Source: Escherichia coli O157:H7
GTDB taxonomy: Bacteria; Pseudomonadota; Gammaproteobacteria; Enterobacterales; Enterobacteriaceae
Length of the DNA: 64,000 bases
Direction: 5' to 3' (one strand)
Assembly: GCF_013167455.1 (NCBI RefSeq)
Contig: NZ_CP038328.1
Shown one piece after another: positions 15,201-18,200 of this stretch. The position numbers were made by a program. Numbering within the stretch: position 1 is the first letter of the stretch; every line of letters begins with the position of its first letter.

Positions 15201-18200
15201 ATCAAACTGATCCATGATCAAATGCTCAATGCCACCCTGTATTACTCCGGCTCTGGTGGCCTGGTGATGAACACGATTTCCTGTGTCGATCTGGCTCTGT
15301 GGGATCTGTTCGGCAAAGTGGTCGGGCTTCCGGTTTATAAACTTTTAGGCGGCGCTGTTCGTGATGAGATTCAGTTCTACGCCACAGGTGCGCGTCCGGA
15401 TCTGGCAAAAGAGATGGGCTTTATCGGTGGCAAAATGCCGACGCACTGGGGGCCACATGATGGCGATGCGGGGATCCGCAAAGATGCCGCTATGGTCGCG
15501 GATATGCGTGAAAAATGCGGTGAGGATTTCTGGTTAATGCTCGACTGCTGGATGAGTCAGGACGTGAACTATGCGACCAAACTGGCCCACGCTTGCGCGC
15601 CCTATAACCTGAAATGGATCGAAGAGTGCCTGCCGCCACAGCAGTATGAAGGTTATCGCGAACTGAAACGCAACGCGCCAGTCGGAATGATGGTCACCAG
15701 CGGTGAGCACCACGGCACACTGCAATCTTTTCGTACGCTTTCAGAAACCGGTATCGACATTATGCAGCCGGATGTTGGCTGGTGCGGTGGCTTAACCACG
15801 CTGGTGGAAATTGCCGCAATCGCCAAATCCAGGGGGCAACTGGTGGTGCCGCACGGTTCGTCTGTTTACTCCCACCATGCGGTGATCACCTTCACTAATA
15901 CGCCATTCAGCGAATTCCTGATGACTAGTCCGGATTGTTCAACGATGCGTCCGCAGTTTGACCCGATTCTGCTCAATGAGCCGGTTCCGGTGAATGGTCG
16001 TATTCATAAATCAGTGCTTGATAAACCCGGTTTTGGCGTCGAACTCAATCGTGACTGCAATTTGAAACGCCCCTACAGCCACTAATCACTCCGGGCGTTG
16101 CTGTGACAACGGTAACGCCCACATATTCTAAGGAGCTTTTTATGAGCACCGCTTTGCTTGACGCCGTGGTGAAGAAAAACCGTGTGCGTTTAATTCCGTT
16201 TATGTTGGCGCTGTATGTGCTGGCGTTTCTCGACCGTTCGAATATCGGTTTTGCCAAACAGACCTACCAGATTGATACCGGGTTGAGTAATGAAGCTTAT
16301 GCGCTGGGAGCAGGCATTTTCTTTGTGGTATATGCGTTTCTGGGTGTTCCGGCGAATCTTTTGATGCGCAAACTGGGGGCCAGAACCTGGATTGGTACGA
16401 CAACACTGCTGTGGGGATTTCTTTCGGCAGCCATGGCATGGGCCGATACTGAAGCGAAATTTCTGATAGTTCGCACTCTGCTTGGTGCTGCGGAGGCCGG
16501 ATTTTTCCCTGGTATGATTTATCTCACCTCGCAATGGTTTCCGCAGCGTAATCGCGCCAGCATTATGGGGCTGTTCTATATGGGCGCACCGCTGGCGTTA
16601 ACACTGGGATCACCGCTTTCCGGCGCGCTGCTGGAGATGCATGGATTTATGGGGTCATCCCGGCTGGTTCTGGATGTTTGTGATTGAAGGATTGTTGGCA
16701 GTCGGCGCTGGGGTATTCACATTCTTTTGGCTTGATGACACACCGGAGCAGGCACGTTTTCTGAGTAAACTAGAAAAAACGTTGCTTATCAATCAACTGG
16801 CAAGTGAAGAACAACAGAAAGTGACTTCTCGGCTGAGCGATGCGCTGCGTAATGGGCGAGTCTGGCAACTGGCGATTATCTACCTGACCATTCAGGTGGC
16901 GGTTTACGGATTAATTTTCTTCCTGCCGACCCAGGTTGCGGCATTGCTGGGAACAAAAGTGGGCTTTACAGCGTCGGTGGTCACCGCCATTCCGTGGGTT
17001 GCGGCCTTGTTTGGGACCTGGCTTATTCCGCGCTATTCCGATAAAACCGGCGAACGGCGTAATGTCGCAGCGCTGACATTACTGGCGGCGGGCATTGGTA
17101 TTGGTCTGTCCGGGCTGCTTTCTCCAGTACTGGCGATCGTAGCGCTGTGTGTTGCAGCCATCGGGTTTATTGCCGTGCAGCCGGTGTTCTGGACGATGCC
17201 GACACAACTGCTTTCCGGTACGGCGCTGGCTGCGGGGATTGGTTTTGTAAACCTGCTTGGTGCAGTGGGCGGGTTTATTGCCCCGATCCTGCGCGTGAAA
17301 GCAGAAACGTTATTTGCCAGCGATGCGGCGGGATTACTGACGCTGGCAGCGGTGGCGGTCATCGGTTCGCTGATTATTTTCACTCTGCGTGTAAATCGCA
17401 CCGTTGCGCAGACCGACGTGGCACATCATTAAATAGGTTAAGGAACACGATGAACGCATTATTAACCATCCCTTTAAAGAACGTTTACGCAAGGGCGAAG
17501 TGCAAATTGGTCTGTGGTTAAGCTCAACGACTGCCTATATGGCAGAAATTGCCGCTACTTCCGGTTATGACTGGTTGCTGATTGACGGGGAGCATGCGCC
17601 AAACACCATTCAGGATCTTTATCACCAGCTACAGGCGGTAGCCCCCTATGCCAGCCAACCCGTGATCCGTCCGGTGGAAGGCAGTAAACCGCTGATTAAA
17701 CAAGTCCTGGATATTGGCGCGCAAACTCTACTGATCCCGATGGTCGATACTGCCGATCAGGCACGTCAGGTGGTGTCTGCCACGCGCTATCCTCCCTACG
17801 GTGAACGTGGTGTTGGGGCCAGTGTAGCACGGGCTGCGCGCTGGGGACGCATTGAGAATTACATGGCGCAAGTCAACGATTCGCTTTGTCTGTTAGTGCA
17901 GGTGGAAAGTAAAACGGCACTGGATAACCTGGACGAGATCCTCGACGTCGAAGGGATTGATGGCGTGTTTATTGGACCTGCGGATCTTTCTGCGTCGTTG
18001 GGCTACCCGGATAACGCCGGGCACCCGGAAGTGCAGCGAATTATTGAAACCAGCATTCGGCGGATCCGTGCTGCGGGTAAAGCGGCTGGTTTTCTGGCTG
18101 TGGCTCCTGATATGGCGCAGCAATGCCTGGCGTGGGGAGCGAACTTTGTCGCTGTTGGCGTTGACACGATGCTCTACAGCGATGCCCTGGATCAACGACT

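Follow-up and report, generated by a model that had tools for sequence, protein, structure and literature searches.

A one-base deletion places the native start codon of rhmA out of frame with the aldolase body in typical Escherichia coli O157:H7

Genes and reading frames of the rhm locus

The window, which is the whole 64,000-nucleotide stretch of DNA analyzed in this study, derives from E. coli O157:H7. Many O157:H7 chromosomes are 100% identical to it over the 261 bases that surround the rhmA start, and a 25-kb segment that spans this start matches strain FRIK1989 at 100% in a single piece. The locus consists of regulator, dehydratase, transporter and aldolase genes, and rpnE/yfaD and glpCBA are found beyond rhmA on the opposite strand. 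The features of the locus are listed below.

14083-14865, plus strand: rhmR (yfaX), an IclR-family regulator gene, intact (ORF list and annotation of relatives)
14868-16085, plus strand: rhmD, the L-rhamnonate dehydratase gene, intact and the longest ORF (ORF list and annotation)
16103-17432, plus strand: rhmT (yfaV), a transporter gene split by an extra T at 16655 into two ORFs (16103-16687 and 16641-17432)
17440-17444, plus strand: native rhmA Shine-Dalgarno sequence AAGGA (anti-Shine-Dalgarno duplex of -6.1 kcal/mol; spacer of 4-5 nt to ATG 17450)
17449-18252, plus strand: rhmA (yfaU) aldolase body, a full HpcH/HpaI aldolase whose translation ends in KGSY and a stop
17450-17521, plus strand: ancestral rhmA start, which by translation now opens a 23-codon out-of-frame ORF with the stop codon TAA at 17519-17521
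17458-17460, plus strand: ATT used as the start in the RefSeq PGAP model (264 aa, WP_027868265.1), from CDS coordinates and translation
17467-17468, plus strand: location of the lesion, where ancestral codon 7 (AAT, Asn7) has lost one A (1 bp), from alignment with O55:H7 DEC5A
17470-17479, plus strand: slippery run CCCTTTAAAG, read from the sequence, with C_CCT_TTA at 17470-17476 and T_TTA_AAG at 17473-17479
17500-17502, plus strand: GTG, the Val18 codon, first canonical in-frame start and the start used in Sakai (ECs_3130, 250 aa)

The RhmD protein WP_000174589.1 is annotated alike in O157:H7 and O55:H7. By offset arithmetic, the start of the 401-aa PGAP model of rhmD would fall at 14880.

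The aldolase body scores 561-585 bits against the NCBIfam model NF007521, the cutoff of which is 441, and matches PDB 2VWS with an E value of 2.8e-176. Its frame lies at -1 relative to ATG 17450 and is open from 17437, directly after a TAG at 17434-17436. The ORF that begins at ATG 17450 shares residues 1-6 with intact RhmA. The canonical start codon that is equipped with the native Shine-Dalgarno sequence is out of frame with the enzyme body, and translation from it does not provide a full-length RhmA match that includes the N-terminal helix (N7, P8, F9, K10, L13 and G16). The original prediction, which was made from the window alone, claimed that the only ATG with a Shine-Dalgarno sequence is out of frame with the aldolase body, that the aldolase frame has no ATG start, and that a nucleotide was deleted at about 17465-17470. 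Translations of both frames confirm the first claim exactly. The second also holds, given that no ATG, GTG or TTG occurs in the aldolase frame between 17437 and the first canonical start, GTG 17500. Comparison with intact alleles puts the missing A at 17467/17468, inside the predicted interval.

Origin and distribution of the rhmA and rhmT lesions

The rhmA gene of the window differs from that of O55:H7 DEC5A only by one A that is missing between 17467 and 17468 and converts CCAATCC into CCATCC. At this site, DEC5A reads ATTATTAACCAATCCC and the window reads ATTATTAACC-ATCCC. The 9-kb locus as a whole contains a handful of differing sites between the two. To count alleles, we used queries in which every 28-mer crosses the deletion junction, so that only exact alleles can match, with a 35-mer for the deleted allele. 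The deleted allele is found in 297 of 5,426 complete E. coli genomes, which represent many strains and countries, and all 60 of the matching rows that were sampled are of the O157:H7 type. The intact allele ACCAATCCC is carried by at least 1,866 genomes, O55:H7 among them.

A 601-nt query from O55:H7 resolves the close relatives. It matches 11 genomes at 100% identity, namely 493/89, which we take to be the sorbitol-fermenting O157 reference, and ten others, eight of which are labelled O55:H7 (RM12579, CB9615, USDA5905, DEC5A, DEC5B, DEC5D, DEC5E and TB182A) and two of which have no serotype label. LSU61 matches the query without a gap and thus has the intact allele. The typical O157:H7 strains rank next with a 600-nt match, which reflects the deletion. 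No revertant or compensating indel was seen among the 310 genomes with at least 99% identity, which comprise 297 with the deletion and 12 identified as ancestral. The lesion is real, clade-wide and missing from the sister lineages O55:H7, 493/89 and LSU61. On this distribution of alleles, the deletion is placed on the branch that leads to typical O157:H7, where it became fixed, and it is dated to after the split from O55:H7, the sorbitol-fermenting O157 strain 493/89 and LSU61.

The deletion is already catalogued as a mutation of the O157 lineage and is in itself no novelty. Table S2 of Zhou et al. 2010 (PLoS One 5:e8700, PMC2806823) lists for O157 a deletion ('del') in the yfaU coding sequence ('CDS') at 3088027, independently reported for Sakai and EDL933. 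The next entry in the same table, 212 bp off, is an O157 change of class 'ns' in yfaV at 3088239 (PMC2806823), and the window contains a T-to-C difference at 17256, 211-212 bases from the deletion, in agreement with that spacing. In the literature, a paper retrieved for yfaU and O157 mentions YfaU only among its references, and the 25 papers listed for rhmA, ECs3130 and Z3503, which were mostly off-topic, contain neither locus tag.

Does the rest of rhmA show signs of relaxed selection? The body of the gene in the window carries no second lesion, and the branch is too short to expect one. Table 2 of Zhou et al. assigns 1,780 changes to the O157 lineage, from which we estimate that 804 bp should have accumulated only about 0.3 changes along the O157 branch. 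Therefore, the lesion-free aldolase body is uninformative either way.

The adjacent transporter gene has been disrupted more than once. In 152 O157:H7 genomes, including Sakai, rhmT is interrupted by IS629/IS1203, which is inserted between GGGGCATCC and TCCCGG with a target duplication of TCC. This insertion corresponds to Indel-151 of Zhou et al. (PMC2806823). The window instead has an additional T at 16655 (GGGGTCATCCCGG) relative to PV15-279 and O55:H7, which lies at the same spot as IS629 and outside any T run. The +T allele occurs in only four genomes (FRIK1989, ECP19-598, 17B6-2 and G5295), and approximately 141 of the 297 O157:H7 genomes match neither rhmT lesion query. A 25-kb comparison of the +T allele with IS-bearing strains gave no resolving SNPs. 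The pathway appears to be decaying, given that rhmT has been hit again and again in O157:H7. Moreover, 1,257 of the 5,426 complete E. coli genomes lack the rhmT-rhmA junction, which indicates that E. coli can dispense with the pathway. The order of events, with the rhmA deletion fixed and the rhmT lesions polymorphic, fits a progressive decay without proving a loss of function.

Consequences for RhmA and routes to residual enzyme

We propose, with a probability of about 0.75, that rhmA of typical O157:H7 is inactivated or strongly hypomorphic within a decaying and dispensable pathway, and that its native start now drives a dead-end ORF. Typical non-sorbitol-fermenting O157:H7 has lost one A from the invariant codon 7 (AAT, Asn). 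Ribosomes that enter at the unchanged Shine-Dalgarno sequence and ATG (17440-17452) therefore translate 23 out-of-frame codons and terminate at TAA 17519-17521, and the 2-keto-3-deoxy-L-rhamnonate aldolase would no longer be made from its normal start. Residual enzyme could then arise only via inefficient routes, namely -1 slippage on the run C_CCU_UUA_AAG, initiation at GTG 17500 or initiation at ATT 17458. We infer a loss of rhmA function. An inactivated L-rhamnonate pathway is likewise the reading that the locus suggests, and it is strengthened by the repeated disruption of rhmT, with low-level rescue possible through the routes above.

The N-terminal region of RhmA is conserved. In an alignment of 46 RhmA orthologues with 72-90% identity, N7, P8, F9 and L13 are invariant, conservation is 90% or more at L5, K10, G16 and E17, and at least 16 residues precede Q19 in all 46 sequences. 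In the AlphaFold2 model of RhmA (mean pLDDT of 81; average of 93 for the ten-residue block 11-20), a helix formed by residues 8-15 directly precedes strand beta-1 (19-24). The F-K-x-x-L motif is also kept in solved HpaI homologues. Because of the invariant N-terminal residues, every candidate rescue product damages a conserved feature. The 267-aa product of a -1 slip would carry the changes N7I and F9L. If ribosomes initiated or re-initiated at GTG 17500, the protein would lack residues 1-17 and with them helix alpha-0, and initiation at ATT 17458 would produce a 264-aa protein with N7H.

Can slippage restore a sufficient amount of enzyme? Three codons downstream of the lesion, the deletion brings the Pro-Phe-Lys codons into the register ATC CCT TTA AAG, and two overlapping X_XXY_YYZ heptamers thereby lie in the zero frame of the ATG. 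Ribosomes that start at ATG 17450 could slip by -1 on C_CCU_UUA_AAG (17470-17479) and yield full-length, 267-aa RhmA. Both heptamers are in phase in the deleted allele only, and a slip on either one gives the same product and restores the aldolase frame. U_UUA_AAG belongs to the 15 best motifs of E. coli, and C_CCU_UUA alone, with no stimulator, gives more than 0.10% (PMC4066793). Furthermore, spontaneous -1 suppression of 1-bp deletions, through slips scattered along the gene, amounted in aggregate to 1-10% for two E. coli test proteins (PMC10861913). Given the two in-phase heptamers and this suppression of 1-bp deletions elsewhere, some full-length protein is probably made through slippage, at a level that we put roughly between 0.2% and a few percent.

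It is unlikely, however, that such slippage supplies functionally sufficient RhmA. Without a stimulator, U_UUA_AAG reaches only 0.177% against a background of approximately 0.055% (PMC4066793), whereas the same study measured 0.354% when the IS911 signals were present and 15.8% when the IS3 pseudoknot was (Sharma et al. 2014, PMC4066793). The sequence downstream of the run provides no stimulator, given that segments of 51, 81 and 121 nt fold no better than their dinucleotide shuffles (z of -0.09 to +1.03, with 0.09 and 0.77 among the values), and inspection of the approximately 15 nt upstream of the motif showed no Shine-Dalgarno-like sequence. Programmed -1 frameshifting was rejected for these two reasons. 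The slip site results incidentally from conserved Pro-Phe-Lys codons and is nowhere else maintained as a shift site, and the other sampled E. coli alleles and the 46 orthologues have a single frame. Because the motif is plain ancestral coding sequence, nothing indicates a programmed or selected event. The slip product would also alter the invariant residues N7 and F9. A translationally self-correcting frameshift, in which a near-native 267-aa enzyme (N7I, F9L) maintains low but physiologically useful activity, is given a low chance; if true, rhmA of O157:H7 would be a naturally occurring 'savior' frameshift site.

Translation could alternatively begin inside the gene. A functional 250-aa RhmA that lacks residues 1-17 might be expressed from GTG 17500 via a weak internal ribosome-binding site or via re-initiation. 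This GTG is the first canonical in-frame start and is preceded by AAGGG at a distance of 3-4 nt. The stop codon of the leader ORF follows 19 nt further downstream, which makes termination-reinitiation conceivable. The GTG model is used for ECs_3130 and is present in public protein sets, and its product, at 561 bits, remains well above the NF007521 cutoff of 441. However, the AAGGG duplex of -4.2 kcal/mol is ordinary, as GTG triplets in the window have a median of -2.9 kcal/mol and 23% of them reach -5 kcal/mol or lower. Eight conserved residues, four of them invariant and four nearly so, would be missing from the product together with all of helix alpha-0, and it would start at residue 18, whereas the curated models of HpaI and GarL begin at residue 7. 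None of the 46 orthologues starts at the position of GTG 17500, and 24 of them have Thr as residue 18, so that GTG 17500 is not a conserved start; its role as a conserved alternative start was rejected on these grounds. We regard a functional GTG product as improbable. The original prediction had named, as one observation that would count against it, an intact reference with the same sequence and a documented GTG start at 17500. This holds in name only. The Sakai reference does annotate the same sequence from the GTG, but the start is an annotator's choice at a codon that is not conserved.

Initiation at ATT 17458, as in the RefSeq PGAP model of an intact gene (264 aa, WP_027868265.1), is very improbable. 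The ATT is in frame with the aldolase body and would retain P8 to E17, and AUU is a proven start codon in infC and pcnB. However, AUU initiates at approximately 1-2% of AUG (bioRxiv 10.1101/063800), ATT 17458 lies 12 nt from the Shine-Dalgarno sequence while a perfect ATG stands 8 nt upstream at optimal spacing, and the ancestral gene and all orthologous genes start at the ATG. The spacing and the codon strength led us to dismiss ATT 17458 as the main start. Finally, the idea of an intact gene behind a sequencing or assembly error, which the original prediction had kept in reserve as homopolymer-type error in both genes and which has in its favor only its a priori possibility and the location of the deleted base in an AA dinucleotide, is refuted to the point of being negligible, because an identical rhmA allele (the same 35-mer) in 297 independently sequenced complete genomes reflects neither chance nor error, an independent report of 2010 gave the yfaU deletion for Sakai and EDL933, and four independent genomes have the +T of rhmT, which lies outside any T run.

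Annotation of the gene and comparison with known systems

The inactivated or strongly hypomorphic rhmA that we favor is not visible in the annotation. RefSeq PGAP starts yfaU at ATT 17458 without a pseudogene flag in PV15-279, TR01 and FRIK1989, and the same pipeline flags rhmT as 'frameshifted' in FRIK1989. In Sakai, rhmA (ECs_3130) starts at GTG 17500 and encodes 250 aa. The 250-, 264- and 267-aa forms are all present in public databases under one name. The annotated models cover positions 18-267 or 5-267 of the NF007521 profile, and the three forms score 561, 585 and 596 bits, respectively, against the equivalog cutoff of 441. The passing of this cutoff by all three forms explains the absence of flags. 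The ATT and GTG starts are annotators' choices rather than documented starts. In the O157:H7 records inspected in RefSeq, rhmA is named as an intact 2-keto-3-deoxy-L-rhamnonate aldolase via the ATT start. Any metabolic reconstruction or pan-genome table that builds on the ATT and GTG annotations will thus include a pathway that most likely no longer works. The value of the finding is mainly curatorial, as an annotation warning. The deletion also provides a clean marker for the last step of the series from O55:H7 to O157:H7, and a new biological question is opened only if slippery-site rescue proves real.

The closest comparison is with the immediate ancestral allele. The rhmA gene of O55:H7 (DEC5A, CB9615 and RM12579) has the same nucleotides except for the one A, and O55:H7 and O157:H7 PV15-279 encode identical YfaX, RhmD and YfaV proteins. 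O55:H7 rhmA differs in that it retains an intact 267-aa ORF from the ATG. K-12 RhmA/YfaU (PDB 2VWS/2VWT, NF007521) is colinear with the O157:H7 protein over residues 8-267, with a single substitution there (D103 for E103), and the operon context rhmR-rhmD-rhmT-rhmA beside rpnE and glpCBA is shared. In contrast to K-12 rhmA, codon 7 of the O157:H7 gene is short of one base, and the native Shine-Dalgarno sequence and ATG miss the aldolase frame.

The candidate rescue routes have counterparts in other genes. The RefSeq model of rhmA resembles the AUU-initiated infC and pcnB genes in that it likewise begins at ATT. Unlike in infC and pcnB, the ATT of rhmA is an annotation device located 8 nt downstream of the true ancestral ATG. 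The slippery run resembles programmed -1 sites, such as dnaX A_AAA_AAG and those of the IS3 and IS911 transposases, in that a zero-frame heptamer ends in A_AAG and the useful product is encoded in the -1 frame. However, the rhmA run lacks a hairpin, a pseudoknot and an upstream Shine-Dalgarno sequence, and it was created by a recent deletion in one clone. Its expected efficiency is approximately 0.2%, whereas programmed -1 sites reach tens of percent. The system of Springstein et al. 2024 (PMC10861913) is similar in that a 1-bp deletion requires a -1 slip before the first out-of-frame stop, but the stretch of rhmA in which a slip would be productive spans only approximately 17 codons.

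Extra T in rhmT and the IS629/IS1203 insertion point

The positions discussed here, in the window and in the comparison records of O157:H7 strains PV15-279 (L001), TR01 (L002) and FRIK1989 (L005), are as follows.

Window 16651-16667 (L002 2460-2475 and 3770-3790): extra T and IS site in the transporter gene rhmT
Window 17458 (L001 4579; L005 3521): ATT start of yfaU (rhmA)
Window 18293-19219, minus strand: rpnE/yfaD

What is the origin of the extra T in rhmT? The frameshifting T is located 5 bp away from the exact insertion point of IS629/IS1203, an element that 152 other genomes of O157:H7 carry at that point of rhmT. 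The window matches the IS-bearing genomes at 100%, split into two pieces, and its bases GGGG-TCA-TCCCGG can be read as the left flank, the final 3 nt of the element's right end and the right flank, respectively. The extra T may be a scar left when IS629 was excised imprecisely with the help of the IS-excision enhancer, instead of a plain insertion, which is the alternative explanation.

Gene models at and around yfaU

RefSeq PGAP begins yfaU at ATT in all three O157:H7 records inspected (product WP_027868265.1), so that RefSeq users see no sign of the frameshift. In FRIK1989, the same pipeline labels the neighbouring rhmT, unlike yfaU, as 'frameshifted'. The database protein P0106 (407 aa) combines an MFS domain (PF07690) with the aldolase domain (PF03328) and shares 99% identity with RhmA. 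Presumably this fusion is either one more artefact of gene modelling or a read-through from rhmT into rhmA in an E. coli assembly. Downstream, rpnE/yfaD, a recombination-promoting nuclease paralogue, is called an 'ISNCY family transposase' in PGAP annotation and simply a 'transposase' in that of Sakai, and its gene model spans 954 nt in TR01 versus 927 nt elsewhere.

Distribution and lineage variation of the rhm locus

The rhmT-rhmA junction (window 17380-17640) has no megablast match in 1,257 of the 5,426 complete E. coli genomes, and the rhm locus thus appears to be accessory within the species. At window 17256 in rhmT (yfaV), most O157:H7 genomes, including the window, carry a T-to-C change that is absent from O55:H7 as well as from two O157:H7 strains, PV15-279 and F3113. 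Zhou et al. 2010 (PMC2806823) catalogue it among the O157-lineage changes, as non-synonymous in yfaV. The substitution may mark an early split within O157:H7.
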